From: an uncultured Mollicutes bacterium
GTDB lineage: Bacteria > Bacillota_I > Bacilli_A > ML615J-28 > CAG-313
DNA: 64,000 nt
Assembly: GCA_900548675.1 (NCBI GenBank)
Contig: URLJ01000001.1
Coordinates: 73,855-137,854, forward strand
Direction: 5' to 3'
Shown here one piece after another: positions 44,645-62,649 of this stretch. Each line of letters begins with the position of its first letter. The first letter of the stretch is position 1. The notes beneath the pieces were generated by a model. That model saw only the letters and a program-made list of their open reading frames with translations. It had not been told where the DNA came from and made no database searches. The translations under genes and the position numbers were made by a program.

Positions 44645-45081
44645 AGGCTGTCATATTCTCCTTTATAAATTTATATTGTGTCATAGTTGTGTCTCCTTTT
44701 AAGTTTAGTAGACAAGTAATTGTCTATAATTAAAGTATAAGGGAAAGTTGACGAAAAGTCAAGTAGGGGAGTTAGTATTAAAATAAGTGTAATTTCTGAA
44801 AAAAATTTTGGTCGGTAGGTGTAATTTTTAAAATAAAAATTAGTCAGTAGGTGTAATTTCCAGGTGACCCCGATACAATTTTGTCAAAAAGTAAAAGTCC
44901 CAAAACCCTTCCCCCAGTAGGATTTGCGGGCTCGCCTTTGCACCCCTTGTCAGAAAGACAACCGTTTGTCTGAGGTATAGCGTTTGTCAGAAAGTCAAAA
45001 AAAAGTTTGTCAAAAAAACAACTTTGTAATAATTTTGTAATATTGTAATATAAATGTAATGTAAATGTAATGTAAATGTTC

Positions 45082-45110
45082 TTGTATTTTCGACAGTTTT
45101 CGCATATAAT
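45082..45110 (+). promoter_or_regulatory. sigma-70/SigA-type promoter (TTGTAT-N17-TATAAT) preceded by TGTAAT x6 tandem repeats
   Basis: -35 at 45082-45087 and -10 at 45105-45110, in the divergent region. Confidence 0.4.
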
Positions 45111-45365
45111 AACATCATCAGGAGAAGGAAGGCGAAGGACTGAACCAAAAAGACAAAATATAATTATGTAAACCGTTCAGGTATTATGTAAACTATAAAT
45201 AAAATATGGCGTTTTGTCAAAAGGTCAAAAGGAGCTGGGTTTTGGTCGAAAAAGCTGGACTTCACCAGATGCAAAAAATTTAAAATTTTTTTCAAAAAAA
45301 AGCAGGAATTTTAAATTTTTTATAGAATATTATAATATAAAGATATGAAAGGAAGGAAGAAAAAA

Positions 45366-45911: not shown

Positions 45912-46094
45912 ATGAAAAAATTATTAGGTATGTTATTAGGAAGTATATTATTAGGAAGTGTTTTAATGTTAATATTAGGAGCTATAAACTGGTTCATTGA
46001 CTGGGCTACTATGGACGAAGGAAGGTTTATCCTATCAATGATAATCATAGGATATGTAGTTGTTAAAATGATAAAAAGAGAGCTAGAACTATAA
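45912..46094 (+). CDS. small hydrophobic membrane protein (60 aa)
   Basis: RBS AAAGGAG. Two predicted TM helices. Confidence 0.4.
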   Translation: MKKLLGMLLGSILLGSVLMLILGAINWFIDWATMDEGRFILSMIIIGYVVVKMIKRELEL

Positions 46095-46102
46095 CTAGCT
46101 CT

Positions 46103-46137
46103 TTATGTAAACCGCTTCTCGCGGCAAGTTTACATAA
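46103..46137. repeat. gene-terminal inverted-repeat element, family member A (TTATGTAAAC-GC core-GTTTACATAA)
   Basis: Arms at 46103-46112 and 46128-46137 flank CCGCTTCTCGCGG. Confidence 0.6.
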
Positions 46138-46225
46138 ATACTTTACTAAATTAATGAATTAATTAGTAGACTTATAAGTTTACATAATAACTTTACAAAT
46201 AAATAAATTATTTTTGTATAAACTA

Positions 46226-46254
46226 TTGACTTCTGGATAAAATAATGATATAAT
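46226..46254 (+). promoter_or_regulatory. consensus early promoter TTGACT-N17-TATAAT
   Basis: -35 at 46226-46231 and -10 at 46249-46254. One of roughly 38 near-identical promoters in 45-61 kb. Confidence 0.55.
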
Positions 46255-46281
46255 ATAAGAGTAGAAAGGAAAGGGATAAAT

Positions 46282-46473
46282 ATGGCAAATAAATTTATTA
46301 ATCATTTTACAGTTGCAGAATTGGAAATAATAAATTGGTACTTAAAACAAGCCCAAGAACAAGAAAGTAAAAGACTAAATGAAATGGGAGAAATAGCAAA
46401 AAAGAGATATATTGACTTAAGGTTTATAATTGTTAAAAACAAAAACTTAATTAAAAAATACAAAAAAGTTTAG
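46282..46473 (+). CDS. hypothetical small protein (63 aa)
   Basis: RBS AAAGGAAAGGG before ATG. Confidence 0.35.
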   Translation: MANKFINHFTVAELEIINWYLKQAQEQESKRLNEMGEIAKKRYIDLRFIIVKNKNLIKKYKKV

Positions 46474-46754
46474 CAAAATGCTAAACTTAATATAAAACAA
46501 TTATAATGGCATTTATTTACAAAGTAATTTTATTTTTCAATTTTATTTTAATTTTAATTTTGATTTTGATTTTATTTTGATTAACCCCAGCCCCTAAAAT
46601 AGAATTGCTTTAACCCCTATTTTGATTATAACCCCAAAATAATTTTAAAAAAATGTATAAAAACACTTGACAAAGGTTATAATATATAGTATAATATATA
46701 TATAATAAATAAGACAGATGATAAAGTCTTTAAAACATAGAAGGAGAGATGTTT

Positions 46755-47108
46755 ATGGAAAAATTAACAATTGCAAAGAAAAATGAAATTTTAAGAGAAA
46801 GAGCATTTGATATGCTAATTAAGGAAGGTTTACTAAATGACAAACTATTTAAGGTTGCAGGTTCAAAATTTATGGTAAATGTTGAATTTGAAGGAGAACA
46901 AGTTCCAGTAAGAATTGATTTTGTAGTTCCAAAAATTGACCCAGAAGATACTTGTCAATTTGCAGAAGATTTTGCAGAACTTTATGAACAAGAACAAGAA
47001 GGAAAAAGAATTGCAAAAGAAGAAAAACAAAAAGCAAAAGAAAAGAAAATTGCAAGAGATAAAGCATTAAGAGAGAAAAAGAAAAAAGAAAAAGAAGAAG
47101 GACAATAG
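46755..47108 (+). CDS. hypothetical protein, paralog family A (lysine-rich C-terminal tail)
   Basis: RBS AAGGAGAG 6 nt before ATG 46755. Paralogous to the 49575-49946 product (shared L-x-AK-E, VRIDxVVPK, AEDxxxL, K-rich tail). Confidence 0.45.
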   Translation: MEKLTIAKKNEILRERAFDMLIKEGLLNDKLFKVAGSKFMVNVEFEGEQVPVRIDFVVPKIDPEDTCQFAEDFAELYEQEQEGKRIAKEEKQKAKEKKIARDKALREKKKKEKEEGQ

Positions 47109-47120
47109 TCCTTCTTTTTT
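47091..47120 (+). terminator. intrinsic terminator
   Basis: GAAGGAC-aata-GTCCTTC followed by T7. Confidence 0.5.
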
Positions 47121-47138
47121 TATTTTATTGTAAAGATA

Positions 47139-47200
47139 TTATGTAAACCTTTATGTAAAGGTATTATGTTAACCGCTTCCGGCGCCCGAAGTTTACATAA
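47139..47200. repeat. gene-terminal inverted-repeat element B (three left-arm copies, GC core CCGGCGCCCG, right arm GTTTACATAA)
   Basis: Left arms TTATGTAAAC at 47139 and 47151 and TTATGTTAAC at 47165. Right arm at 47191-47200. Confidence 0.55.
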
Positions 47201-47313
47201 CAACTTACAAATAATTTAAAAATATTTTAATTTTTTTTGCATATTTTACTTGACATTTGGAAATAATTATAGTATAATATAATTACAAAAGGGAAAGGTA
47301 AAAGGTGGTTAAT

Positions 47314-47790
47314 ATGAAAAAAATATTTTTAGATTTAGATGGAACATTAGCAAAATTTAATGTAAGAAATGCTTTACAAAGATTTGATAAAGAAATTGGC
47401 TTTTTTGCAAAACTTGGAGCATATAAAGGAATTGAAACAATAAACGAATTAGCAAAAAATGGAAATGTATATATAATTTCAGCAAGTCCAAACACACAAG
47501 CAGATTTTGACAAAATAGTTTGGATAGAAAAATATTTAAACAATATACCAAAAGCAAATAGGCTAATTTGTAGAGTTGGAGAAAACAAAGCAGAATATTT
47601 AAAAACAAAAGGAATACAAATTGACAAAAATTGTTATTTGTTAGATGATTACACAAAAAACTTAACAGAATGGGAAACAGTTGGAGGAGTAGGCATTAAA
47701 AGAATTACAAAATGTGCTGATAATTCAACAAAAAAATGGTTAGGTTTAGAATTAAAAGATTTATGTAAACTAAGCGAAGTTTTGGCTTAG
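47314..47790 (+). CDS. HAD-superfamily 5'(3')-deoxyribonucleotidase-like protein (paralog 1)
   Basis: HAD motif I DLDGTL at the N-terminus. Later DD and K motifs. Paralogous to the 60875-61378 product. Confidence 0.5.
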   Translation: MKKIFLDLDGTLAKFNVRNALQRFDKEIGFFAKLGAYKGIETINELAKNGNVYIISASPNTQADFDKIVWIEKYLNNIPKANRLICRVGENKAEYLKTKGIQIDKNCYLLDDYTKNLTEWETVGGVGIKRITKCADNSTKKWLGLELKDLCKLSEVLA

Positions 47791-47825
47791 TTTTTCTTTT
47801 TGACAACCCGCTTCTGGTAAAGTTA

Positions 47826-47865
47826 TTATGTTAACTTGGCGCGCCGTCCAAAAAGGTTTACATAA
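47826..47865. repeat. gene-terminal inverted-repeat element C
   Basis: TTATGTTAAC (47826-47835)...GGCGCGCC...GTTTACATAA (47856-47865). Confidence 0.6.
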
Positions 47866-47958
47866 TATGTTGCAAATAAATTAAAAAATTTTTGCATAAA
47901 CTATTGACAAAAGGGAATAATAGTAGTATAATTAATACAACAAAGGGGGAATATAAAA

Positions 47959-48273
47959 ATGAAATTTATAAATATGATAAGAGAAATTATGCAAATGGAT
48001 ATTGAAAAAGGATTTAAAAGAAAAATGTTATTTTTGGGTTGTTTAGAGGCAATTTTAGGAGCTTATAAACTATTAATAAAATTACCAGTATATTTTTTTG
48101 GTTTACCTTTTAATATTTTACACAAAATTGGTGAATTTGTTGCTGATGGTTGTATGAATATAATGTGGGCTATTGATGAGTTACCAGATGTCAAATTGGC
48201 TAAAAAAGAAGACAAAGATATATTAGTTCAAAAATTAAAAGAAAAATATAATAGAAAAGTATTGACAAAATAA
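47959..48273 (+). CDS. hypothetical protein with hydrophobic segment
   Basis: RBS AAAGGGGGAA. 104 aa. Confidence 0.4.
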   Translation: MKFINMIREIMQMDIEKGFKRKMLFLGCLEAILGAYKLLIKLPVYFFGLPFNILHKIGEFVADGCMNIMWAIDELPDVKLAKKEDKDILVQKLKEKYNRKVLTK

Positions 48274-48322
48274 AATGTATATGTTATAATATAATTAAGT
48301 TAAGAGAAGGGAAGAGATTAAA

Positions 48323-49021
48323 ATGAAAATTGATAAAAGAAAAAAATATTTAATGGTGTTAGATGTTGAAACTGCAAACTCAAATGTAGAAAAAGGTGCA
48401 AAAAACGATGGTTTAGTTTATGATTTAGGACTAACAGTAATTGATAAAAAAGGACAAATTTACGAAAAGAAAAGTTTTGCAATAAAAGAAATTTTTGACT
48501 GGTCTGAGCTTATGTCAACTGCTTATTATAAAAATAAATTACCAAAATATTATGAGAAATTAAAAAACAAAACAATGGAAAAAGTAAGTATTTGGACTGC
48601 ACGAAAAATAGTTAAAAATTTAATAGAAAAATATAATATAACAGAAGTTTATGCTTTTAATGCTTTATTTGATTATACAACATTAAATAACACAGTTAGA
48701 TATTTAAGTGGTTCAGGTTGTAGATGGTTTTTCCCTTATGGTACAAAAATATGTGATATTTGGCACATTGCTTGTCAAGTGTTAGGAACACAAAAAACTT
48801 TCCAATGGGAAAATGTTAGAAATGCAAAAGGAAATCTAATAACAAACGCAGAACGAATGTTTGGTTATATAGACCAAAATGAAGATTTTGAAGAAGAACA
48901 CACAGGACTTGCAGATACACTAATTGAGGGGCAAATACTTGTTCGTTGTTTTAATAATCATAAATCAATTGATAAAAAAATCAATAGAAGTTGTTGGAGA
49001 ATACCACAAAAAGTTGCTTAG
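48323..49021 (+). CDS. DEDDh 3'-5' exonuclease (DnaQ-like), paralog 1
   Basis: Exo I LDVETAN, Exo II YAFNALFD, Exo III HTGLADT. Paralogous to the 57683-58447 product. Confidence 0.55.
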   Translation: MKIDKRKKYLMVLDVETANSNVEKGAKNDGLVYDLGLTVIDKKGQIYEKKSFAIKEIFDWSELMSTAYYKNKLPKYYEKLKNKTMEKVSIWTARKIVKNLIEKYNITEVYAFNALFDYTTLNNTVRYLSGSGCRWFFPYGTKICDIWHIACQVLGTQKTFQWENVRNAKGNLITNAERMFGYIDQNEDFEEEHTGLADTLIEGQILVRCFNNHKSIDKKINRSCWRIPQKVA

Positions 49022-49049
49022 GCAACTTTTTCTTTTTGACAAAATAATA

Positions 49050-49116
49050 TTATGTTAACTTATCCCGCCGGCGCGAAAACGAACAAATGTTTGGTGTAAC
49101 CTTCAGGTTTACATAA
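49050..49116. repeat. gene-terminal inverted-repeat element D, enclosing a Cheo-box-like site
   Basis: TTATGTTAAC (49050-49059)...CCGCCGGCG...CGAACAAATGTTTG...GTTTACATAA (49107-49116). Confidence 0.6.
49080..49093. promoter_or_regulatory. LexA Cheo-box-like site CGAACAAATGTTTG
   Basis: GAAC-N4-GTTT matches the Gram-positive SOS box CGAACRNRYGTTCG with one mismatch. Confidence 0.4.
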
Positions 49117-49224
49117 TAACTTACAAATAATTGTCAAAAAGAATTTTAAAAAATTTTGTATATTCTCTTGACTTTTGCATATAATAGTAGTATAATAAAT
49201 ATATAAAGAAAAGGGGATGATAAT

Positions 49225-49362
49225 ATGAATGAAATAATTAATAGGTTAGTTGAAAATGCAATACAAAAATATGGATTTGAACACAAAAAGACAATAGCAA
49301 TTGTAAAAAATGCTGAAAACTTAAAAGAAAAATATGAGTTAGGAATTTTAAAAATTTGTTAA
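49225..49362 (+). CDS. small hypothetical protein (45 aa)
   Basis: RBS AAAGGGGATGA before ATG 49225, behind its own TTGACT-N17-TATAAT promoter at 49167-49196. Not in the ORF track because it is under 60 aa. Confidence 0.3.
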   Translation: MNEIINRLVENAIQKYGFEHKKTIAIVKNAENLKEKYELGILKIC

Positions 49363-49574
49363 AAAACTATTGACAAGATAAACAAAGTATGTTATAATAT
49401 AAGTACAGTAAGAAAAGAAGTCAAGACAAAATAAAAATAAAAAGTTTTAAAAAAGTCTTGACAAACACAATAAAGTATGTTATAATAAATACATAAAGAG
49501 AAGTAAAAAATCTTGAAAATTCTCTGAAAAGATTTATAAAAAAATTAAAATTTGAAAGGATTAGGTGATGTTTT

Positions 49575-49946
49575 ATGGCAAAATTAACAGTAGCAAAAAT
49601 CAATGAAATGGCAAGAGGAGTTGCAATGGAGGAAATAGCAAAAAATGGCTTAGTAAACTTCCTACAAATAGAAGGAACTAAATTTGCAAAAGATTTTGAA
49701 TTTGAAACAGAAGAAGGCAAAATGACAAAAACTGTAAGAATTGATGTAGTTGTTCCAAAATTAGAAGAAGGGGAAAATGCTGAATTTCTAGCAGAAGATT
49801 ACCAATTAAGACTAAAAGAAAAAAAAGAAAATGCTAAAGCAAAAGCAGAAGCAAAGGCTAAAAAAATTGCAAGAGATGAAAAAAGAAGAGCAGAAAAAAA
49901 GGCAAATGAAACAAACCCAGTAATTAAGAGAACTATAAAAGAATAG
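49575..49946 (+). CDS. hypothetical protein, paralog family A (second copy)
   Basis: Shares MxKLTxAK, VRIDVVVPK and AEDY motifs and a K-rich tail with the 46755-47108 product. Confidence 0.45.
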   Translation: MAKLTVAKINEMARGVAMEEIAKNGLVNFLQIEGTKFAKDFEFETEEGKMTKTVRIDVVVPKLEEGENAEFLAEDYQLRLKEKKENAKAKAEAKAKKIARDEKRRAEKKANETNPVIKRTIKE

Positions 49947-49949
49947 TCA

Positions 49950-49978
49950 AAAGGGCAAAATGCCCTTTTGTTTTTTGT
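49950..49978 (+). terminator. intrinsic terminator
   Basis: AAAGGGCAAAATGCCCTTT followed by TGTTTTTTGTTT. Confidence 0.55.
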
Positions 49979-49990
49979 TTGGTAAAGATA

Positions 49991-50035
49991 TTATGTAAAC
50001 CAAACATTTGTTCAGGCCGGCACAAGTTTACATAA
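49991..50035. repeat. gene-terminal inverted-repeat element E, enclosing a Cheo-box-like site
   Basis: TTATGTAAAC (49991-50000)...CAAACATTTGTTCAG...GGCCGGC...GTTTACATAA (50026-50035). Confidence 0.6.
50001..50015. promoter_or_regulatory. LexA Cheo-box-like site (reverse complement CTGAACAAATGTTTG)
   Basis: GAAC-N4-GTTT. Confidence 0.4.
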
Positions 50036-50127
50036 AATTCCAAAAATTTTTTAATAAAATTAGTATAAACTATTGACATTTGCACATAATAGTAGTATAA
50101 TATAAATATAGAAGGGGAGTTGATAAT

Positions 50128-50562
50128 ATGAAAAATAAAAAACTTATGGAGGCTAAAAAGTTAATTAAATCAATAGATAATGATATTCAAATCATTGTAG
50201 AAAGACACAAATATACAAGAGGGTTAACCTGTGAACCAACAGAAAAAAGAATTTATTTAGGTTTTAGGGCTACAAAAATTGAAAACCAAACATTCATAGA
50301 TTTAGTTAATGAATTAGAACCTAATTTCTTCCAGAAGTACAAAGTTAGTTTATGGCTATTAAGTGTATTACACGAAATAGGACACATTCAAACCCACGAT
50401 GAAGAACTTGAAGACGATTACAATTTTTGTGTTGATTTTCTTAATGAGTTGAAATTAAACAATGAAATTACAGAAAAAGAACAAAACGAATATTATGTAA
50501 GGTTAGACTTAGAACAAATGGCAACACAATGGGCAATAGATTATGTAAAGAAGGCATTTTAG
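50128..50562 (+). CDS. putative zinc metallopeptidase (HExxH; ImmA/IrrE- or SprT-like)
   Basis: HEIGH motif inside LLSVLHEIGHIQTHDEE, with a downstream Glu. 144 aa. Confidence 0.4.
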   Translation: MKNKKLMEAKKLIKSIDNDIQIIVERHKYTRGLTCEPTEKRIYLGFRATKIENQTFIDLVNELEPNFFQKYKVSLWLLSVLHEIGHIQTHDEELEDDYNFCVDFLNELKLNNEITEKEQNEYYVRLDLEQMATQWAIDYVKKAF

Positions 50563-50591
50563 CCTTCTTTTTTTATACCATAATTACCATT

Positions 50592-50627
50592 TTATGTAAA
50601 CTTGGCTTGCCGGCGCGGTTTACATAA
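50592..50627. repeat. gene-terminal inverted-repeat element F
   Basis: TTATGTAAAC (50592-50601)...GCCGGCGCG...GTTTACATAA (50618-50627). A degenerate Cheo-like CAAACATTTGTTTG follows at 50649-50662. Confidence 0.55.
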
Positions 50628-50689
50628 CAACTTTACATAATGCCGCACCAAACATTTGTTTGTCAAATTTCAACTCTTTATTGCCGGCA

Positions 50690-50835
50690 CGCTCGCAGCC
50701 TACTGTCAAATTTCTACCACCCTCGCCGCCTCCTAAGGAGCTGCAAAGGAGCTGGGAGCTGCGTTGTCAAATTTTCGCCAGGAGCTGCGTTCAACCTCCC
50801 AGGTTTACATAATATGTTTACAGGAGCTGCAAAGC
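50690..50835 (+). repeat. GC-rich GGAGCTGC repeat island with TGTCAAATTT x3
   Basis: (A/C)AGGAGCTGC occurs 5 times and TGTCAAATTT(C) 3 times. The track ORF 50640-50852 is judged a spurious product of these repeats. Confidence 0.5.
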
Positions 50836-50906
50836 CAACGTTTGACTTTTAGTACAAATTCATGTATAATTATATTATAGAAAAAATAAAGAAAGGGTTG
50901 ATTTAA

Positions 50907-51612: not shown

Positions 51613-51689
51613 GCATTAGTATGCAAACTGGCAAAGCAGCTGGTCTTAGAAACCAGTGTATGAAAGTTCGACTCTTTCCTAATGCACCA
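51613..51689 (+). tRNA. tRNA with anticodon TAG (Leu by codon table) but class-I architecture (5-nt variable loop)
   Basis: Acceptor GCATTAG/CTAATGC, A73, CCA encoded. Anticodon stem CTGGT/ACCAG around loop CTTAGAA. T-arm GAAAG-TTCGACT-CTTTC. Confidence 0.6.
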
Positions 51690-51757
51690 AATTATGGTTT
51701 GCGAGGCACCCATCGGTGAGAGCTGCACATCTCACATGAGAAAACCTCGGTGCATAT

Positions 51758-51844
51758 GCACCTTTGGCGGAATAGGCAGACGCGTGGGACTTAAAATCCC
51801 ATGGACGAGAGTCCGTCCCAGTTCGATTCTGGGAAGGTGCACCA
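51758..51844 (+). tRNA. tRNA-Leu(TAA), class II with long variable arm
   Basis: Acceptor GCACCTT/AAGGTGC. Anticodon stem TGGGA/TCCCA around loop CTTAAAA. Variable arm TGGACGAGAGTCCGT. T-arm CCCAG-TTCGATT-CTGGG. CCA encoded. Confidence 0.7.
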
Positions 51845-52002
51845 GCAGGGCGAACCCGTAACGTCCCTTTGCAAATAGAATATCGGGTGGTGTGGATAAG
51901 CGAAGCTACAATGCTCAATAATAGTAGTTCTTGTTATTTATTTTTTCGTATACCATTTGGGTATACAGAACGCGCGGCGTCGCAAGCGACAGCCGTTTAT
52001 AT

Positions 52003-52089
52003 GGGTCTTTGGGTGAGCTGGCTAAAACCGCCAGACTGTAAATCTGGTCTCTTCGGAGTACCCTGGTTCGAATCCAGGAGGGCCCACCA
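52003..52089 (+). tRNA. tRNA-Tyr(GTA) with long variable arm
   Basis: Anticodon stem CCAGA/TCTGG around loop CTGTAAA. Variable stem CTC-TTCG-GAG. T-arm CCTGG-TTCGAAT-CCAGG. Acceptor GGGTCTT/AGGGCCC. CCA encoded. Confidence 0.65.
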
Positions 52090-52095
52090 TTATAT

Positions 52096-52171
52096 TCGCG
52101 GGTGGTGTAATTGGTAACACGACGGACTTTGACTCCGTAGAGTGTTGGTTCGAGACCAGCCCCGCGAGCCA
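52096..52171 (+). tRNA. tRNA-Gln(TTG)
   Basis: U1-A72 acceptor TCGCGGG/CCCGCGA. D-stem GTGT/ACAC. Anticodon stem ACGGA/TCCGT around loop CTTTGAC. T-arm GTTGG-TTCGAGA-CCAGC. G73 then CCA. Confidence 0.65.
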
Positions 52172-52254
52172 CAGCTACGCAAGTAGCGAAACACACCCCT
52201 TTCTTTTGTAGGTCAGCTGTCTCGTGTAGACCTGACAGCTGGCTAATTTCAAAT

Positions 52255-52283
52255 TTGACTTTTAGTGTGAATTTTGATATAAT
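52255..52283 (+). promoter_or_regulatory. internal promoter TTGACT-N17-TATAAT upstream of tRNA-Val
   Basis: -35 at 52255-52260 and -10 at 52278-52283. Confidence 0.5.
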
Positions 52284-52306
52284 ATTATTATAGTAAAAGT
52301 AAATAT

Positions 52307-52382
52307 AGTCCGTTAGCTCAGCTGGTAGAGCATCGCCCTTACAAGGCGGAGGTCGTTGGTTCGAACCCAACACGGACTACCA
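52307..52382 (+). tRNA. tRNA-Val(TAC)
   Basis: Acceptor AGTCCGT/ACGGACT. D-arm GCTC-AGCTGGTA-GAGC. Anticodon loop CTTACAA. T-arm GTTGG-TTCGAAC-CCAAC. CCA encoded. Confidence 0.7.
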
Positions 52383-53459: not shown

Positions 53460-53748
53460 CTGATTTTTAAGAGGGATAGTTTGGTGGGCACCTCACCATT
53501 AAGAGCTGGTGCTGAATTGGACAACTATTATTTGCTACCAATTATTTGAAAAAAGTTTTAAAAAAGACTTGATTCAAGGTAGCAACATAGTTTATAATAT
53601 AAATGTAAAATGAAAAAGGAAAAATAAAAAAGACTTCTAATCCTTTACCATTTAGCGTAATAGCTCTGGTTTATTAGAAGCAAAAAATATTTATTTTAGA
53701 AAGGGTATCCAATTGGCTGCTATAAGGTTGGATATTAGGGTGAAAATT

Positions 53749-54000
53749 ATGGCTAAAGAAAGATTTAATGTAATGGGAAAAGAACTTACTGCAAATGAAA
53801 AAGCAGTATATGAATTCGTAAGGGACAACGGAGTAGTTGATTACAAGATGGTTGCTGAAAAACTAAATATCAGTCCAAAGAGTGCATCAAGCACACTAGC
53901 AAGACTAGAAGCAACTCATTCACTATTAAAGAAAAATGCTCCAAAAGTTGCTACAACTTATGAAGTAGAAGCTGAAGCTGACGAAGTTGAAGCTGAATAG
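53749..54000 (+). CDS. small winged-helix-like protein, family W paralog 1
   Basis: MAKERFNVMGKELTANEKAVYEFV...SPKSASSTLARLEATHSLLKK aligns with four other copies. Acidic C-terminus. Confidence 0.4.
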   Translation: MAKERFNVMGKELTANEKAVYEFVRDNGVVDYKMVAEKLNISPKSASSTLARLEATHSLLKKNAPKVATTYEVEAEADEVEAE

Positions 54001-54002
54001 TA

Positions 54003-54040
54003 ATAGGAGTATCGGCTTAGCCGAGCTCCTATAATATATT
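54003..54040 (+). terminator. hairpin terminator (weak T-tract)
   Basis: ATAGGAG-TATCGGCTTAGCCGA-GCTCCTAT. Confidence 0.35.
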
Positions 54041-54366
54041 AAGGTTTTTATTCTTCACAATATAAAAGGGGTTGCTTGTGGTTGCCCCAACCAAAAACAT
54101 AAGTGGTGGTAGGTTTGCTCGTTAGGGGCTGCGAGGGTAAATAAAGAACAGCAGAACTGGTTGCATAATACGAGTGGCAAGGCAAGAGCCTTGTCTTTTT
54201 TTTATTTTTTAATTTTAGACTTGACAAACGGTACTTGCATATGATAAAAAAACTTTTTTATTTTTTTTTGCAAAAAAGACTTGACGAGATCCCTTAAAAT
54301 GAATTATAATTATTATAATGGGAGTGATATATATAAAAAAAAAGAAAAATTTACGGAGATGATATT

Positions 54367-54858
54367 ATGTGGAAATCGTATGATGATATATATGAGATAA
54401 GCACTGGTGGTAAGATAAGAAATAAGAAAAGTCCTGATAAGATATTAAAGACATATGTTAATAATTGTGGATATGAGAAATTCAAGGGCCACAATGTACA
54501 TCAGTATGTACATAGAATGGTAGCGGAGACATTCATACCTAATCCATCTGGTAAAGAACAAGTGAACCATAAAAATGGGGATAAGCTGGATAACAGGGCA
54601 GAAAATCTTGAATGGGTAACTCGTAGTGAGAACGTATCTCACGCTTATAAGTGCCTAGGAAGAAAACGTAGTTACTGTGGTTCAAAAGGACATAATGCTA
54701 AAAAGGTATATCAGTATTCATTAGAAGGTCAGCTCCTTACTACCTATAATTCGGTGGGTGCAGCTGCAGAAGCTGTCGGAGGTGCAAGTCCTAACATCAG
54801 CAGATGTTGCAATGGGCATATTAAAACATACAAAAACTTTGTATGGAAAAATGAATAA
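54367..54858 (+). CDS. HNH homing endonuclease (free-standing)
   Basis: YVHRMVAETF and NHKNGDKLDNRAENLEWVTRSEN follow the same pattern as the intron-encoded HNH. Own promoter TTGACG...TATAAT at about 54287-54320. Confidence 0.5.
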   Translation: MWKSYDDIYEISTGGKIRNKKSPDKILKTYVNNCGYEKFKGHNVHQYVHRMVAETFIPNPSGKEQVNHKNGDKLDNRAENLEWVTRSENVSHAYKCLGRKRSYCGSKGHNAKKVYQYSLEGQLLTTYNSVGAAAEAVGGASPNISRCCNGHIKTYKNFVWKNE

Positions 54859-54913
54859 AAATACTTGACTTGTCCTTCCTTAAAGATTTATGATATAATG
54901 GGAGAGTATTATT

Positions 54914-54927
54914 AAAAAAAAAAAAAA
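54914..54927 (+). repeat. A14 homopolymer at the 5' end of an ORF-less transcript
   Basis: 14 consecutive A immediately after TATAATGGGAGAG. Confidence 0.7.
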
Positions 54928-55345
54928 TAGATCCCAGCTCCCTTAGCCTGATCCAGCTCCAAATCCCAGCTCCCACCTAAGGGGTTAGCTATGAGGGCGC
55001 AGCTCCAGATTGCTACCAGGGGATAGGTGGCAATGAATTATTTCCTGGGAAATATTTGCTAGCAAAAAATGGGTAGACTCCCCCCTCCCCTTCTTCTGGC
55101 AGTTAGATCTCATTACACGGCTCGGGTCTAACTATCGCCCACATAATTAATTTTTCTTTTCCTCCTTTCTTTATAATATAATTATACATCTTTCAGCTCC
55201 CAATAGTCAAGTATTTTTTGAAAAATTTTAGCAGCTCCCATTGCCCCCCACCTTCCAGCTCCCATAGCGCAGCTCCGGTAGGTAAAGCGCAGCTCCCACC
55301 CAGCTCCCAATAGGTGGCAATGCCAGCTCCCTGCTACCAAATTAT
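54928..55345 (+). repeat. CCAGCTCC(C) / ATAGGTGGCAA repeat island (the minus strand reads GGGAGCTGG)
   Basis: At least 10 copies of CAGCTCC and 3 copies of ATAGGTGGCAA in two blocks (54928-55010 and 55193-55345). Promoter-driven with no credible ORF; the track ORF 55182-55433 (-) is judged a spurious product of these repeats. Confidence 0.5.
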
Positions 55346-55492
55346 AGGTGGCAACACCTGATCTGATCCACCTTGACCGGATCTCTTGCCCTTGGGATAA
55401 TTTTTGCAATAAATTTTTAAAAAAGACTTGCATTTTACTCCATAATTTGATATAATTATATTGTAAATAAAAAAGAAAGGAAGAGTGGTAAA

Positions 55493-55672
55493 ATGAAACA
55501 AAAACTAATTAAAAAATTGCACGATCTAATGCTACAAATAATTACTTGTAATGATGCTGAACTTGACAAGATAGGAATTGAACTTGCCGAAATAGAAAAA
55601 CAATTAATTAATTGGCAAGAAAAAAATCTCAAAAAAAATAAAAAAATACTTGACTTTAAGGACAAGATGTAG
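55493..55672 (+). CDS. small hypothetical protein (59 aa)
   Basis: RBS AAAGGAAGAGTGG before ATG 55493. Its 3' end overlaps the next promoter. Confidence 0.35.
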   Translation: MKQKLIKKLHDLMLQIITCNDAELDKIGIELAEIEKQLINWQEKNLKKNKKILDFKDKM

Positions 55673-55740
55673 TATAATTAATATATCAAATGAAGAAATA
55701 AAAGAAAAGTAAAAAAAGTTAAAAAAATTAAAAAAAACAC

Positions 55741-55769
55741 TTGACTTTTAAATCTGAATTTGATATAAT
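55741..55769 (+). promoter_or_regulatory. consensus promoter TTGACT-N17-TATAAT
   Basis: -35 at 55741-55746 and -10 at 55764-55769. Confidence 0.55.
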
Positions 55770-55833
55770 ATATATGTAAATAAAAAAAGAAAGGGCATTA
55801 ACAAATTAGTCGGTTAATGTAATGGTGATTAAA

Positions 55834-56079
55834 ATGGCTAAAACAAAAGAATTATTTAATGTTAGAGGAGTAAACTTAACTGCTCACGAAAAAAATGTTT
55901 ACGACAAAGTAAAGGAATTAGGCACTGTTGACTACAACCAAGTAGCAACTGCTTGTAATGTATCTACTAAGTCTGCTATTGCAACATTAGCAAGATTAGA
56001 AAAAACTCACGGTTTATTAAGAAAAAATGAACCAGTAAAAGTAACTACTTATGAAGTTGCTGATGTAGAGGGCGAATAG
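55834..56079 (+). CDS. small winged-helix-like protein, family W paralog 2
   Basis: MAKTKELFNVRGVNLTAHEKNVYDKV...STKSAIATLARLEKTHGLLRKNEPVKVTTYEV. Confidence 0.45.
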   Translation: MAKTKELFNVRGVNLTAHEKNVYDKVKELGTVDYNQVATACNVSTKSAIATLARLEKTHGLLRKNEPVKVTTYEVADVEGE

Positions 56080-56092
56080 TCCTCTTTTTTTA
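56063..56092 (+). terminator. intrinsic terminator
   Basis: AGAGG-gcgaatagt-CCTCT followed by T7. Confidence 0.5.
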
Positions 56093-56104
56093 TTTACTGT
56101 AAAG

Positions 56105-56118
56105 CGAACAAATGTTTG
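56105..56118. promoter_or_regulatory. LexA Cheo-box-like site CGAACAAATGTTTG
   Basis: GAAC-N4-GTTT, 8 nt upstream of a TTGACA. Confidence 0.4.
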
Positions 56119-56207
56119 TCAAATACTTGACAAAAAATTTTTTTATTTTTTTTATTAAAAATACTTGACTTTGTGGGGGAAAGTGTGATATAATTAAAGG
56201 GGAAGTA

Positions 56208-56227
56208 TTTTTTTTTTTTTTTTTTTT
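56208..56227 (+). repeat. T20 homopolymer
   Basis: 20 consecutive T directly downstream of promoter 56170-56198, at the 5' end of an ORF-less GC-rich transcript. Confidence 0.7.
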
Positions 56228-56271
56228 AGTAGCTTCGCAGCTGCCACAGCAGCAGCTCAGCTCCCAGCTCC

Positions 56272-56291
56272 GACACACCCGGGTGCGTTGT
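56272..56291 (+). repeat. conserved 21-nt motif copy 1 (GACACACCCGGGTGCGTTGT)
   Basis: Member of the 7-copy family with consensus TGATACGCCCGGNTGAGTTGTA. Confidence 0.5.
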
Positions 56292-56352
56292 TGCCCCCCG
56301 TTAGGGGGTAAGGGGCTAGGTGGTTGCCCCTGGGTTGGGTTAACCCAAGATC

Positions 56353-56374
56353 TGATACGCCCGGTTGAGTTGTA
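56353..56374 (+). repeat. conserved 21-nt motif copy 2 (TGATACGCCCGGTTGAGTTGTA), flanked by AGATCT and preceded by the GGGTTAACCC palindrome
   Basis: Direct sequence match. Confidence 0.55.
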
Positions 56375-56403
56375 AGATCTTTTTGATCCGGGAGAGGATC
56401 TCA

Positions 56404-56425
56404 CGATACGCCCGGATGAGTTGTC
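56404..56425 (+). repeat. conserved 21-nt motif copy 3 (CGATACGCCCGGATGAGTTGTC)
   Basis: Direct sequence match. Confidence 0.55.
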
Positions 56426-56535
56426 TTTCATTATTATAATATAAAAAAACTTGAAAAACTTTTATAAAAATGCTTGACTTCTTTTTCTTTATTTGGTATA
56501 ATTAAGATGTAATAAAGAAAGGAAAGGTGTTAAAA

Positions 56536-56727
56536 ATGACTGAAACACAAGAATTGATTTTAAATAAGTTAGGGGAATTATGTAGAATTTATCCACAACA
56601 AAGATTAGGACAAATAATCTATAATTATATTTTAAGGTATTGTCCTAATAACGATTGTTTCTTTATAGAAGATACTAAACTTTTAGAATTATTAGAAACA
56701 ATTACAAAAGAAATTGAAGAAAAGTAA
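56536..56727 (+). CDS. hypothetical small protein (63 aa)
   Basis: RBS AGGAAAGGTG before ATG 56536. Promoter at 56473-56503. Confidence 0.4.
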   Translation: MTETQELILNKLGELCRIYPQQRLGQIIYNYILRYCPNNDCFFIEDTKLLELLETITKEIEEK

Positions 56728-56797
56728 AAAAAATACTTGACTTTAATTTCTACCTATGATATAATTAAGATGTAATAAAGAAAGGAAAGTGATAAAA

Positions 56798-56920
56798 ATG
56801 GCAATGACACCTGCAAAAAGACATCAAATAAGAGCAAAGCAAGAGGCAATGCAAAAAGCAAGAAAAGAGGAAAGACTTGGACTTGCTAAAAAAACAGCAA
56901 AGAAAAAGGGAAGAAAATAA
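56798..56920 (+). CDS. small basic protein (40 aa, Lys/Arg-rich)
   Basis: RBS AAAGGAAAGTG before ATG. Own promoter. Followed by the hairpin GGGAAGAAA-ataa-TTTCTTCCC. Confidence 0.35.
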   Translation: MAMTPAKRHQIRAKQEAMQKARKEERLGLAKKTAKKKGRK

Positions 56921-56964
56921 TTTCTTCCCCCCTCAAAAAAAATTAAAAAAAGTTAAAAAAGGTA

Positions 56965-56993
56965 TTGACATTTGACCTAATAAATGTTATAAT
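56965..56993 (+). promoter_or_regulatory. consensus promoter TTGACA-N17-TATAAT
   Basis: -35 at 56965-56970 and -10 at 56988-56993. Confidence 0.55.
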
Positions 56994-57045
56994 TAATATG
57001 TAAATGAGAGATAGCCACTCTCAAAAAGAAAGGAAAGTGATAAAA

Positions 57046-57291
57046 ATGGCAAAAACTAAAGAAACTTTTAATGTAAGAGGTGTAGAACTAACTGCACACG
57101 AAAAAAATGTTTATGAAAAGGTTGTAGAACTTGGAAAAGTTGACTATAATCAAATTGCTACAAGTTGTAATGTAAGTCCTAAAAGTGCGATAGCAACACT
57201 TGCTAGACTTGAAAAAACACACGGACTTCTAAAGAAAAATGAACCTGTAAAGGTTACAACTTACGAAATCGCCGAAGATATAGAGGACTAG
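57046..57291 (+). CDS. small winged-helix-like protein, family W paralog 3
   Basis: MAKTKETFNVRGVELTAHEKNVYEKV...SPKSAIATLARLEKTHGLLKKNEPVKVTTYEI. Confidence 0.45.
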   Translation: MAKTKETFNVRGVELTAHEKNVYEKVVELGKVDYNQIATSCNVSPKSAIATLARLEKTHGLLKKNEPVKVTTYEIAEDIED

Positions 57292-57308
57292 AAACCTCTA
57301 TATTTTTT
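57270..57308 (+). terminator. intrinsic terminator
   Basis: TATAGAGG-actagaaa-CCTCTATA followed by T7. Confidence 0.5.
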
Positions 57309-57320
57309 TATGTTCTAATA

Positions 57321-57334
57321 CGAACAAATGTTCG
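57321..57334. promoter_or_regulatory. LexA Cheo-box, perfect match CGAACAAATGTTCG
   Basis: Exact fit to the Gram-positive SOS box consensus CGAAC-N4-GTTCG. Confidence 0.5.
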
Positions 57335-57465
57335 CTTTTGGCCCCCCCAAAAAAAATTAAAAAAATTACAAAAAACTATTGACTTTCACTTGCATTTTTG
57401 CTATAATTATGTTAGAGGTGGAGGAGAGCCCCTTATAAAAAAGATCTTCCTTTAGATCATCTGAT

Positions 57466-57487
57466 GATACGCCCGGATCAGTTGTAT
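57466..57487 (+). repeat. conserved 21-nt motif copy 4 (TGATACGCCCGGATCAGTTGTA)
   Basis: Sits in an ORF-less unit behind promoter 57383-57412, preceded by the AGATCT...AGATC inverted repeat. Confidence 0.55.
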
Positions 57488-57682
57488 GGGTTGGGATGCT
57501 CCCAAAAAAATTAAAAAAAATATAAAAAAAGTATTGACTTTTGATTTGGTCTATGATATACTTAATATGTAATCAAGGAAAGACACCAAAGAAAAAAAAT
57601 AAAAAAAATTATAAAAAAGTGTTGACACTGATTAGAAAGTATGTTATAATAAATATGTAATTAAGAAAGGAAAGTGAATTAA

Positions 57683-58447
57683 ATGGAAACAAAAGGTTAT
57701 CCACAAAAACAAAAAAATATCAATGTTAGAAAGGTTAAAAATGTTTTAGGAATTGATACTGAAACTATAATGGACTTACAAAATGCAATGCCATTTGATA
57801 TCGGTTATGTTGTTTACAATAACAAAGAAGATAAAATCGAAAAACAAGGAACTTATCTTGTTAGAAAGTTTGTAAATAATAAATACATTATTTTATCAAG
57901 TTGGAGTGCTAACAAGTACGAAAGATATTATAAACCACTTTTAAACACTAAAACAAAAGATGTTAAAGTTGAAAGTGTAGAAAAAATAGCAAAAGAATTT
58001 GCTAAAATAATTAAAAAATATGATATCAAATATATGTTTGCACACAATGGACAATTTGATTATCAAGCACTTAAAAGATTATTTGAAGATGTTGGAGTTA
58101 AAAACCCTTTTGAAAATCTTGATATAATTGATACAATGATGTTAAGTTATAAAACTATTACAACTACAAAAGAATATGAAAACTTTTGTAAAGAAAATAA
58201 AAACATCACAAAATTACAAGATAAAAAAGTTGTTAGTCGTTTTATTACTGATAGTAATAGAGTAAGACAAACTGCCGAAAGTATCTTCGCATTTATAGAT
58301 AAAAATATTGATTTTGAAGAAAATCACACAGGACTTGAAGATATAAAAATTGAATTAGAAATCTTTAAGTATTGCAAGGGTAAAAAAGCAATTTTCCCTA
58401 TCAATACACAACCAACTTGGCGTGATTTTGCAAAATTAGAAAGTTAA
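57683..58447 (+). CDS. DEDDh 3'-5' exonuclease (DnaQ-like), paralog 2
   Basis: Exo I GIDTETI, Exo II HNGQFDY, Exo III HTGLEDI. Confidence 0.5.
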   Translation: METKGYPQKQKNINVRKVKNVLGIDTETIMDLQNAMPFDIGYVVYNNKEDKIEKQGTYLVRKFVNNKYIILSSWSANKYERYYKPLLNTKTKDVKVESVEKIAKEFAKIIKKYDIKYMFAHNGQFDYQALKRLFEDVGVKNPFENLDIIDTMMLSYKTITTTKEYENFCKENKNITKLQDKKVVSRFITDSNRVRQTAESIFAFIDKNIDFEENHTGLEDIKIELEIFKYCKGKKAIFPINTQPTWRDFAKLES

Positions 58448-58585
58448 AAAAACTTTCTTTTTTTTGTAAAAAAGTATTGACTTTATACCAAAACAATGCT
58501 ATAATTATAATGGGGGTGGATGATGATGATATATATAACAACGCCGCCTGGCGTGTCATAAACGTCCCCCTTGGGTTAACCCAAA

Positions 58586-58607
58586 TGATACACCTGGATG
58601 AGTTGTA
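58586..58607 (+). repeat. conserved 21-nt motif copy 5 (TGATACACCTGGATGAGTTGTA), preceded by the TTGGGTTAACCCAA palindrome
   Basis: Sits in an ORF-less unit behind promoter 58477-58505, whose transcript starts ATAATGGGGGTGG. Confidence 0.55.
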
Positions 58608-58745
58608 GACAAAAGCCTAGAATAAAAAAGTTAAAAAAGTTTTAAAAAACTATTGACAATGACCTAATACTATGCTATAATATATATGTAAGATAAAGAA
58701 AGATATATCTTACAAATGATTATTTAAGAAAGGAAAGTGATACAA

Positions 58746-58976
58746 ATGAATAATCAAAAAACTAAAAAAAGAGTATTAAAGAAAGGTGTTGAAAAGGTAT
58801 TCAGTACAATTGTTGCTATTTGGTTTTTTTGGATAATGACTACAATTGACACAATAGACAACCCATTTAATGAAATTAAAAGTTATTTAATCATTACTGG
58901 AATATTAACAATACTTGCCTTATTTAGTTTCATAATGCTAATGAAATACTCTAATTTATTTGAAGATGCCGACTAG
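58746..58976 (+). CDS. small membrane protein (two TM helices)
   Basis: RBS AAAGGAAAGTG. Hydrophobic segments FFWIMTTI and ITGILTILALFSFIML. Confidence 0.4.
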   Translation: MNNQKTKKRVLKKGVEKVFSTIVAIWFFWIMTTIDTIDNPFNEIKSYLIITGILTILALFSFIMLMKYSNLFEDAD

Positions 58977-59119
58977 TGCATCTTTTTTTATTATTGCATC
59001 AGGTATAAAAAAAATAAAAAAAAATTGCAAAAAAGTATTGACTTTTGTTTCACAAAATGATATAATTATAATGGGAGAGAATAATAATAATATAAAAAAA
59101 GATCTAGGGGTGGATCTGA

Positions 59120-59141
59120 TGACACGCGTGGGTGAGTTGTA
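59120..59141 (+). repeat. conserved 21-nt motif copy 6 (TGACACGCGTGGGTGAGTTGTA)
   Basis: ORF-less unit behind promoter 59036-59064. Preceded by AGATCTAGGGGTGGATCT. Confidence 0.55.
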
Positions 59142-59238
59142 AGAAAGTTAAAAAAAATTAAAAAACTTTTAAAAAAGTATTGACTTTAATCTAATAAAGT
59201 GGTATACTTAATATGTAATCAAGAAAGGAATGAAAAAA

Positions 59239-59601
59239 ATGAATTATAGAAACTTTAAAATTGAAATGGAAGAAAAGGACTTAAAGAAAACAAACTTAAT
59301 CTATAAATGGTTAATAACTATGAAAGATGGAAAAGTTGCTACTTATGTTGGAATATCAACAAGACCACTTGATGAAAGAACAAAAGAACACATAAGAGAT
59401 AAAAGAACATATTTTGATAAGTTCTTAACTGAAAATGAAAACAATATCAAAAGTATTAAAATTGAGGTTGTAAAAGAGTTAAAAAGAAACTTTAAAGATA
59501 TGAAAACACAACTTGAAAAAAGAGAAACTAAACTTATAATAAAAGATAAGTTAGAAAATGCTTTTAATCTTAATAGTAAAATTGATAAAAGATTTGCATA
59601 A
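59239..59601 (+). CDS. GIY-YIG-like endonuclease (divergent)
   Basis: LIYKWLITMKDGKVATYVGIS...R...EH fits the GIY...YIG...R...H/E spacing loosely. Confidence 0.3.
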   Translation: MNYRNFKIEMEEKDLKKTNLIYKWLITMKDGKVATYVGISTRPLDERTKEHIRDKRTYFDKFLTENENNIKSIKIEVVKELKRNFKDMKTQLEKRETKLIIKDKLENAFNLNSKIDKRFA

Positions 59602-59780
59602 AAAGTATTGACTTTTAAAAAGATATTTGATATAATAATATTGTCAATAGGAAATGAACTTAATAAAAAAAATTAAAAAAGTTAAAAAAACTATTGACAA
59701 TATCAATTATATTTGATATAATAAATATGTAAATAAGAAAAGAACTTATTTACAAGTAGCAAAGAAAGGAAAGTGATATT

Positions 59781-60026
59781 ATGGCTACAAAAAAAGAATT
59801 ATTTAATGTAAAGGGTGTTGAAATGACAGCACACGAAAAAATGGTTTTTGATAAGGTTGTTGAACTTGCAAGACCAGTAAGTTATAAGGAAATTGCAAAA
59901 GAGTGCAACATTAGTGAAAAAAGTGCTTGTGCTACACTTGCAAGATTAAATGCTACAAAGGGAGTTTTGAAGAAAAACGAACCTATCAAAGTTACAACTT
60001 ATGAAATAAATGAAGATATCGATTAA
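59781..60026 (+). CDS. small winged-helix-like protein, family W paralog 4
   Basis: MATKKELFNVKGVEMTAHEKMVFDKV...SEKSACATLARLNATKGVLKKNEPIKVTTYEI. Confidence 0.45.
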   Translation: MATKKELFNVKGVEMTAHEKMVFDKVVELARPVSYKEIAKECNISEKSACATLARLNATKGVLKKNEPIKVTTYEINEDID

Positions 60027-60040
60027 GATATCTTTTTTTT
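60008..60040 (+). terminator. intrinsic terminator
   Basis: AAGATATC-gattaa-GATATCTT followed by T9. Confidence 0.5.
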
Positions 60041-60251
60041 TAGTGCAAAAAAAAATTAAAAAAATTTGCAAAAAAGTATTGACTTTATACTTAAAGAGTG
60101 ATATAATTATAATGGGGGAGAATAATAATATATAAAAAAAACGATCTACTTTTGGATCACAAAAAAATGAAAAAACTTTAAAAAAAATATTGACTTTATA
60201 CCATTTATTTGGTATAATATATATGTAAGATAAAGAAAGGAATGATTAAAA

Positions 60252-60464
60252 ATGAAAAAGAAAAGAGTGTTAAAAAGTTGGGTTAAGGAAACATTATTAT
60301 TTATTGCTTGTGGTATTGCTTTATTTGGTTGTTTCAAGTTATTACAATTACAAGACCAACACGAATACAATAAAGCAATTGAAAGATGTGGAAGTGTTGA
60401 AAACCTAAACACACACTACACACAACAAGGCGACAAATACTACACTTGCAAGGTTGAAAAATAA
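60252..60464 (+). CDS. small secreted/membrane protein with N-terminal signal-like segment and a conserved Cys pair
   Basis: MKKKRVLKSWVKETLLFIACGIALFGC... resembles a signal peptide; a lipoprotein reading is uncertain. Confidence 0.35.
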   Translation: MKKKRVLKSWVKETLLFIACGIALFGCFKLLQLQDQHEYNKAIERCGSVENLNTHYTQQGDKYYTCKVEK

Positions 60465-62259: not shown

Positions 62260-62649
62260 TTAATCCACCAATCCGTAATCTTTTAATATTTTTACTAATT
62301 CCTGTCCAATTGCACGTTGCATTGGGTCGGGACTGCTTTTTAATTCATTTGCCTTATGCACCATTCCATCAATTTTGTCTTTTTGCATAAAATATCTACC
62401 ATAGTCGCCAGTCATATCGTTAAGCGGTGCGATTGGAATTCGTTTTTCTTTTGAAACAAGAAAAAGTGCCCTGTCATCAGCTTCTAGAGTTAGTTTCTCA
62501 TTTGGCTCGATTGCAAAATCTTCAACTCTGCCGCCAATAGTCTCTATCTTAACACTAACATTAACTTTGTAACTAGTAGTGGTAAAATCCATTGCTTGCC
62601 AATTATGAGTGTCGAAGTTTACATAAGTTGTATTAAATCCATTATTCAT
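62260..62649 (-). CDS. hypothetical protein
   Basis: 129-aa ORF translationally coupled to its neighbours. Confidence 0.35.
   Translation of the reverse strand: MNNGFNTTYVNFDTHNWQAMDFTTTSYKVNVSVKIETIGGRVEDFAIEPNEKLTLEADDRALFLVSKEKRIPIAPLNDMTGDYGRYFMQKDKIDGMVHKANELKSSPDPMQRAIGQELVKILKDYGLVD

Follow-up and report, generated by a model that had tools for sequence, protein, structure and literature searches.

The inverted-repeat elements that lie between the early genes of an uncultured gut phage raise the question of which factor, if any, they were made to bind. They are located in a stretch of 64,000 nucleotides (64 kb) of contig URLJ01000001.1 (positions 73,855 to 137,854), referred to below as the window, which is part of a large SPbeta-like siphovirus genome of approximately 30% GC. 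From 45.3 kb rightwards, the window contains 10 small open reading frames (ORFs) in about seven transcription units, whose promoters are perfect or near-perfect versions of TTGACA-17-TATAAT and whose ends are canonical terminators. The region is taken to be early solely on account of these host-type promoters. An initial annotation had noted six composite elements at the ends of these units, each with 10-bp arms around a GC-rich core, and had proposed a kinship with REP or attC elements and a function as recombination junctions, RNA processing sites or protein-binding sites. The analysis presented here favors the last of these options, which was the best supported of the three. On the basis of sequence identity and comparative context, we consider it an even chance that the elements, which are pairs of opposed arrays of the half-site of the host recombinase XerD, are bound by this protein and serve to control or insulate the early genes.

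The 10-mer TTATGTWAAC, in the following called a box, occurs 20 times in the window compared to 1.1 expected copies, and 19 of the 20 lie between 45164 and 50812. The full inverted pattern, TTATGTWAAC-N10-40-GTTTACATAA, was detected at 46103, 47164, 47826, 49991 and 50592. It is expected zero times and never appeared in shuffled sequences. A further copy at 49050 has a 47-bp spacer, and all six annotated elements are present. Two independent assemblies show 100% identity across the early region, so that the boxes are not an assembly artefact.

The arm is a XerD half-site, an identity that was not recognised by the initial annotation and was reached through a literature search for the 10-mer. 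The dif site of B. subtilis reads ACTTCCTAGAA-TATATA-TTATGTAAACT, and TTATGTAAAC or TTATGTTAAC forms the end of many other bacterial dif sites. Every box matches the XerD-binding arm TTATGT(A/T)AA(A/C)(T) exactly, TTATGTAAAC(T) being that arm. RipX (XerD) is known to favor the conserved right half-site of dif. In the consensus of 258 boxes from 16 loci, the box extends as in dif, with a T before it and a C followed by T or C after it. An XerC arm in inverted orientation was not found in these 258 boxes (information of at most 0.33 bit at -18 to -8), nor was a partner arm at 6-8 bp, the neighboring TTGTAA being only 4-5 bp off. The 6-bp (up to approximately 12-bp) central region of dif and dif-like sites, IMEX attP included, is also missing, as the opposed XerD arms are 15-47 bp apart. 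The lack of an XerC arm and of a 6-bp central region therefore argues for XerD half-site arrays instead of recombination sites. The sites of CcpA (cre), TnrA, PhoP and DnaA and the promoters of sporulation sigma factors do not fit the box.

In the window, an element comprises one to three exact boxes on its left and one or two on its right, while relatives have up to four per side. The opposed arrays bracket a GC-rich spacer of 15-47 bp, with the outer ends of the boxes facing each other. Element 1 (46103..46187) abuts a hairpin at 46079-46102 and is composed of a left box (46103-46112), the core CGCTTCTCGCGGCAA and right boxes at 46128-46137 and 46178-46187. In element 2 (47139..47200), the left arm is triplicated, as had been annotated, with boxes at 47139, 47151 (with TTATGTAAAG) and 47164 in a spacing of 12-13 bp, followed by the core CGCTTCCGGCGCCCGAA and a right box at 47191-47200. 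Element 3 (47761..47865) consists of a left box (47826-47835), the core TTGGCGCGCCGTCCAAAAAG and a right box (47856-47865), preceded by an outlying left box (47761-47770) within the 3' end of an NT5C-like gene. The 47-bp core of element 4 (49050..49116), enclosed by boxes at 49050-49059 and 49107-49116, contains CCGGCGC (49068) and the LexA-like box CGAACAAATGTTTG (49080-49093). Element 5 (49991..50035) has a left box, a core with the LexA-like CAAACATTTGTTCA (50001-50014) and GGCCGGCAC, and a right box at 50026-50035. In element 6 (50541..50662), the left box (50592-50601), the core TTGGCTTGCCGGCGCG and right boxes at 50618-50627 and 50631-50640 are preceded by a degenerate left box (50541) within the gene's 3' end and followed by a LexA-like box (50649-50662). 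Three Cheo-like LexA boxes had been assigned to the loops of the elements; those at 49080 and 50001 are indeed in cores, but the one at 50649 lies just after element 6. Two partial copies had also been reported. The first, annotated at 45165, turned out to be two direct left-type boxes (45164-45173 and 45184-45193) upstream of the first early gene, close to degenerate boxes TAATGTAAAT at 45057-45066 and 45068-45077. The second is a solo right box (50803..50812), which ends 29 bp ahead of the -35 hexamer at 50842. The sole box outside the early region (62617..62626, minus strand) is situated within an ORF.

The position of the elements relative to transcription signals follows one order: terminator, left boxes, core, right boxes, promoter. 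Canonical terminators are located 18-22 bp upstream of four elements (47090..47121 on the plus strand, preceding element 2, and equivalents at 49008-49031, 49948-49970 and 50547-50570), and five elements end 37-51 bp ahead of the next -35 hexamer. The consensus sigma-A-type promoter after element 1 spans 46226..46254 on the plus strand; equivalent promoters are at 47250-47278, 47904-47932, 49168-49196, 50073-50101 and 50842-50870. From the end of the right box to the -35 hexamer, the gaps at the six promoters are, in order, 38, 49, 38, 51, 37 and 29 bp, and the centres of the promoter-side boxes fall near -70, -79 or -91. The conserved motif described ahead of the promoters, AACTTACAAATAA, follows four of the six elements and is a degenerate extra copy of the box at a spacing of 13-14 bp. 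The left-hand TTGTAAAG is another such copy, the spacing for the two motifs taken together being 12-14 bp. The elements mark cassette boundaries as claimed, but not every one of them, since the transcription unit 46282-46473 ends without an element.

Tandem boxes in the clade are spaced by 13 bp in 16 cases and by 12 bp in four, compared to 14-15 bp in the podoviruses described below. Half of the boxes lack an opposed partner within 100 bp; solo boxes and direct-only arrays also occur. The gaps between right box and -35 hexamer in phages group at 27-29, 36-42 and 49-51 bp, which suggests helical phasing. The cores in the window have a GC fraction of 0.48-0.76 against approximately 0.27 locally, in agreement with the initial description; on average, cores show 53% GC over a background of 30%. 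They are unrelated to each other in sequence and carry lineage-specific motifs. CCGGCGC, for example, is present in four copies in the window (0.41 expected), three of them in cores and all on the plus strand, while in the relative L030 seven of eight ACGGTG copies have a box within 60 bp. Folding energies of the cores range from 0 to -22 kcal/mol, and a structure common to all cores was rejected because strong GC hairpins were seen in some relatives yet only weak ones in the window. It is a possibility that the GC-rich cores bind a second, lineage-specific protein of phage or host.

The arrangement of boxes ahead of a promoter has a parallel at the bacterial gene for XerD. In Pusillibacter faecalis, tandem boxes (L254, 2514-2537) precede an operon with xerD by about 240 bp. 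The link was tested on 63 Oscillospiraceae-like loci from gut metagenomes (L256-L335), each with at least 600 bp of upstream sequence and encoding an XerD 52-81% identical to the Pusillibacter protein. In 51 of them, one to five boxes were detected not more than 1.2 kb upstream of xerD, and the box density upstream of the gene was 1.56 per kb, compared to 0.03 per kb in the remainder of these loci. Arranged in tandem at 13-14 bp, the boxes in most loci lie upstream of a promoter-like site of the operon, towards which they point; some loci have a further box just downstream of this site. This arrangement is that of the right boxes ahead of the phage early promoters, at a similar distance, and suggests that XerD may autoregulate its operon.

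Boxes were also detected in other replicons. Pattern scans of viral contigs revealed the succession of terminator, left boxes, core, right boxes and promoter in many AT-rich uncultured contigs of 70-145 kb, and homologues of the early genes of the window were found at nine loci from seven or eight contigs. Eight phi29-like podoviruses of 14-15 kb have boxes in their terminal inverted repeats, where one to three boxes lie at 20-75 bp from the end; next comes an inverted box or a LexA box, with an early promoter behind it. This family possesses a protein-primed polymerase and the typical phi29-type structural genes; homologues of the 11 early-region proteins of the window (g1-g11) were not found in it. 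In a plasmid collection, tandem boxes were almost confined to Firmicute replicons (five of six matches). The inverted box pair is common in metagenome-assembled genomes (MAGs) of gut Clostridia, with three notable contexts: immediately adjoining true dif sites, at a DnaA-box cluster, and around a Noc-site consensus that neighbors parS. Among the papers that were searched, none describes XerD boxes ahead of phage early promoters, at the ends of phage genomes or in front of xerD operons.

Some further arrangements of the arm were recorded. Two Bacilli MAGs (L222, 4082-4125, and L238, 3555-3598) have XerD arms bracketing the consensus of the Noc-binding site, ATTTCCCGGGAAAT, and parS comes next within approximately 40 bp, between gyrA and dnaX. 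In six Clostridia loci, TTATGTAAAC-N20-GTTTACATAA lies beside a pair of DnaA boxes in the intergenic region between a sigma-70-like gene and yceD. In seven loci from diverse bacteria, and in others, the chromosomal dif precedes a short hairpin, behind which lies another XerD arm in inverse orientation. Seven viral contigs of about 50% GC contain six to seven boxes in approximately 310 bp, in five of the seven in one orientation.

With confidence evenly balanced, we read the boxes as operator or boundary sites for host XerD on the early promoters. Host XerD would bind the boxes without recombining them, and the resulting protein-DNA complex would act as a block in the gap that separates each terminator from the promoter of the following unit. 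Because the promoter-side boxes match those of the xerD operons in orientation and distance, XerD occupancy is expected to set the activity of the early promoters. We infer that it probably limits this activity and insulates neighboring units. The LexA boxes in or next to three of the elements would add SOS control as a second host input. A wider and distinctly more doubtful proposal is that uncultured phages of gut Firmicutes, SPbeta-like siphoviruses as well as phi29-like podoviruses, copied the xerD operator of their hosts and use XerD as a transcription and architecture factor at early genes and genome ends. A precedent for such use of host proteins is phi29, which has 0A boxes for Spo0A close to its early promoters and to both DNA ends as well as parS sites for Spo0J (PMC2731898). 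The phages have in common that sites for a host protein of chromosome or cell state are placed near early promoters and bring early transcription under host control, XerD binding being a prediction in the present case. The protein would here be a recombinase and not a response regulator or ParB, and the geometry of the arrays differs.

Several observations weigh against XerD operators. The left-side boxes point away from any promoter, and neither the symmetry of the elements nor their GC-rich core is explained by simple promoter control alone. Four strong promoters (46667, 48262, 49370 and 49458) have no boxes, and element 6 has no promoter directly downstream. As the intergenic modules are paralogous, the constant distances between box and promoter may reflect common descent and not selection. 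Instead of an operator, the boxes ahead of xerD might represent a dif-like or XDS-like site linked to this gene. The window is part of a genome, so that an Xer-like protein of the phage may be encoded elsewhere. Finally, the host can be placed no further than a gut Firmicute with Cheo-type LexA boxes, probably a member of the Clostridia; one close relative of the phage was binned in a Clostridia MAG.

The main rival to control of transcription is a role in chromosome traffic, unlikely as we judge it, in which the arrays would recruit XerD mainly to unload or block Smc-ScpAB or pumps of the FtsK/SpoIIIE type, transcription not being the target. According to the accounts of Karaboja et al. 2021 in PMC11840125 and PMC12322038, Smc-ScpAB is unloaded at XerD-only sites (XDS) in the terminus of B. 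subtilis, and a boundary arises where an XDS array is placed ectopically. The phage boxes share with the XerD arm of dif the recognition sequence of 10-11 bp (TTATGTAAACT) and, like XDS as described there, occur in clusters in which no XerC partner could be used, so that XerD would serve a purpose other than recombination. Opposed arrays would halt traffic from either side. In addition, the related 144-kb phage L028 has two perfect parS sites, TGTTTCACGTGAAACA (3192-3207 and 5310-5325), among the XerD boxes of its early region and a single-mismatch copy at 371, parS being the site of SMC loading through ParB, and the arms in the two Bacilli MAGs mentioned above bracket a Noc-site consensus beside parS. 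On the other hand, parS was not found in the window, the boxes are limited to approximately 6 kb of the 64 kb instead of being spread, and both their fixed place upstream of promoters and the parallel with the xerD operons favor transcription. Unlike XDS, the phage sites are opposed arrays around a GC-rich spacer and stand between terminators and promoters.

All other explanations are less likely. It is improbable, and slightly more so than a role in chromosome traffic, that an early regulator or Xer-like protein encoded by the phage itself binds the boxes and that their likeness to the XerD arm is due to convergence or mimicry. Clustering in the early region at fixed distances from promoters is usual for sites of phage regulators, and in four contigs tyrosine-recombinase genes adjoin box clusters. 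However, identical boxes are present in the unrelated 15-kb podoviruses lacking homologues of the window's early proteins, and a tblastn search with XerD as query found no recombinase in these podoviruses, one of which (L006) was also scanned ORF by ORF. Boxes upstream of bacterial xerD operons speak against a phage-encoded binder as well. Domains in the window were searched with Pfam in 29 distinct ORFs, including every ORF of at least 170 aa except those compared with PHROGs only, namely the large structural proteins and the terminase. Among the 29 ORFs, neither a Phage_integrase domain nor a tyrosine recombinase was found, and the early proteins are nearly all ORFans.

The cassettes themselves are shuffled between relatives, a possibility that the initial annotation had raised: the order of signals is kept and the order of genes differs. 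Here, it is g4-g5-g6-g7-g8-g9-g10, in L024, L068 and L050 it is g7-g5...g10-like and in L030 it is different again. It might thus be supposed that the boxes are crossover points at which promoter-gene-terminator cassettes are moved or inverted by Xer recombination, but we regard this as quite improbable. Every cassette does lie between inversely oriented boxes, with the side of the dif central region towards the cassette. A relative with 93-97% identity differs in box copy number and in the core of element 2 (10 of 17 bases match in either orientation, as judged by eye); one arm is degenerate, and an indel of 50 bp separates the two sequences between a pair of right boxes. A precedent exists in the pdif (dif) modules of Acinetobacter plasmids, which are bounded by inversely oriented Xer-type sites (PMC13141974, PMC10132070). 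These sites are, however, complete (XerC-6 bp-XerD), whereas the phage elements consist of XerD half-sites alone, paired around a spacer and without a conserved XerC arm or a partner arm at 6-8 bp. Moreover, the junctions that could be mapped are not at the boxes. The homology blocks among the relatives are promoter-gene-terminator units. In the 93-97% identical relative, where there is an additional gene of 84 aa and the exonuclease-like gene is replaced, the breakpoints map to start codon, promoter and terminator, and in L068 the g7 and g5 blocks are joined across 30 bp without a box. Shuffling is therefore real, but the idea that the elements are its junctions is not supported by the mapped breakpoints. 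The shuffling resembles PeSL-type recombination in T4-like phages and not a Xer crossover, and homologous recombination between conserved promoters and terminators, as for PeSLs, explains it. In T4-type phages, PeSL cassettes are small early ORFs, each with a conserved promoter and a stem-loop (PMC2839356, PMC4122927). The likeness lies in order and content being shuffled between relatives with breakpoints in regulatory sequences, and the cassettes of the window show an early promoter and a stem-loop around shuffling small ORFs, while the XerD-box elements do not. PeSLs differ in having neither XerD boxes nor GC-rich cores, and the present phage is a siphovirus of Firmicutes. As a separate observation, 53472-64000 is 97% identical, in inverted orientation, to a 131-kb relative (L255) in which it adjoins a different sigma-like and terminase module; compared to the window, this amounts to a large mosaic or inversion, and boxes are absent from the junction.

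A kinship with mobile or repeated elements is not upheld either. The attC sites of integrons, which are structure-specific (R''-L''/L'-R'), do not fit because no tyrosine recombinase, and thus no integron integrase, was found in the scanned ORFs and because it is the sequence of the arm, without covariation, and not its structure that is conserved in the elements. REP and BIME elements do not fit because the arm is the XerD site, the cores are mutually unrelated and no transposase or RAYT-type gene was found among the scanned ORFs.

It is very improbable that the arms pair as RNA or DNA hairpins to terminate transcription, direct RNA processing or stabilise mRNA. The elements lie at gene ends and five of six regions fold better than shuffled sequences (z of -2.5 to -5.3), but the good z-scores include the true terminators upstream. 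None of the elements is followed by a T-run, and a terminator scan detected the upstream hairpins and not the elements. At the variable position of the box, 24 of 42 distinct convergent elements are pairable and 18 are mismatched (A:A or T:T), compared to 26.6 pairable ones predicted by independence. Paired arms that are conserved without covariation argue against a hairpin function, as do the many solo or direct-only boxes and the range of core folding from 0 to -22 kcal/mol. With Rfam at gathering score, only tRNAs and no family at the elements were found between 44000 and 53000. A reading as hairpin or terminator was thus rejected, and the initial view that the elements, which follow real terminators, are not plain terminators themselves was confirmed. 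The least credible explanation is that of miniature inverted-repeat mobile elements inserted between genes. In its favor, terminal inverted repeats are present, and one Lachnospiraceae MAG has multiple copies of a palindromic repeat of 57 bp that carries these arms. Against it, the elements are just 35-67 bp long with cores unrelated to each other, lack direct target duplications, vary in box number per side and hold fixed positions relative to promoters. The Lachnospiraceae palindrome has XerD arms at its ends and the core AAATATGACAATGGGGACAGTCCCCATTGTCATATTT, and is present in eight copies on seven contigs.

Other host-factor sites were found near the boxes. LexA (Cheo) boxes are enriched in the window, with 18 matches at up to two mismatches compared to 7.6 expected; among them are those at 49080, 50001, 50649, 56105, 57321 (perfect), 61734 and 61791. 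LexA binding is plausible and concerns a motif separate from the repeated arm. Phages controlled by LexA, such as GIL01, have boxes of this host repressor in their early control regions; in the window, by contrast, the LexA boxes accompany the repeated arm and are not the arm itself. Neither parS nor DnaA boxes are enriched in the window. The heptamer TTGTCAAA, which differs by one mismatch from the Spo0A box TGTCGAA, shows a modest enrichment (15 versus 7.6 expected) and its clusters flank the early cassette block (44881-45221 and 50660-50771). The Chi-like GAAGCGG, which is the Chi site of S. aureus and contains that of B. subtilis (AGCGG), occurs beside elements at 46112, 47173 and 47808, always on the minus strand, its overall count in the window being only marginally significant. 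After element 6, a GC-richer non-coding stretch (50730-50830) contains GGAGCTGC iterons, in place of which a close relative has ACAGCTG iterons; this may be an origin or a protein-binding array.

Beyond the early region, the structural module extends leftward from 44.6 kb and encodes a 2597-aa tape-measure protein, the large terminase and a sigma-like protein; Yon and Yom domains of the SPbeta type were found in its genes. The large terminase is at most 45% identical to any counterpart of an isolated phage. A megablast comparison of the region with GenBank phages gave no match, and a BLAST search of isolated phages with a synthetic box array gave weak partial matches, none with a query coverage of at least 80%. 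The clade of this phage is uncultured. With the sigma-like protein as query, one close relative and nothing else was recovered, and a ThyX protein at the left edge of the window is not on record. Two early proteins of 119 and 123 aa (46749-47108 and 49575-49946), which are encoded in separate cassettes, are paralogous (approximately 40% identical) and have Lys/Glu-rich tails. An AT-rich tandem repeat with a 12-bp period (46527-46576) lies between the third early gene and the following promoter. Five tRNA genes (51613-52382), an HNH-NUMOD homing-type endonuclease (54367-54858) and two NT5C-like nucleotidase genes (47305-47790 and 60866-61378) were also identified.

The known roles of XerD are those of a recombinase and, in Bacillus, of an SMC unloader. 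If it binds the boxes described here, phages would be hijacking a host factor of a new kind and XerD would act as a regulator of genes, and if the phages did copy their operator from the xerD operon, an autoregulatory, non-recombinational role of XerD would exist in Clostridia. Binding of XerD to the boxes would also provide a simple sequence signature by which uncultured gut phages could be tied to Firmicute hosts of the XerCD type.

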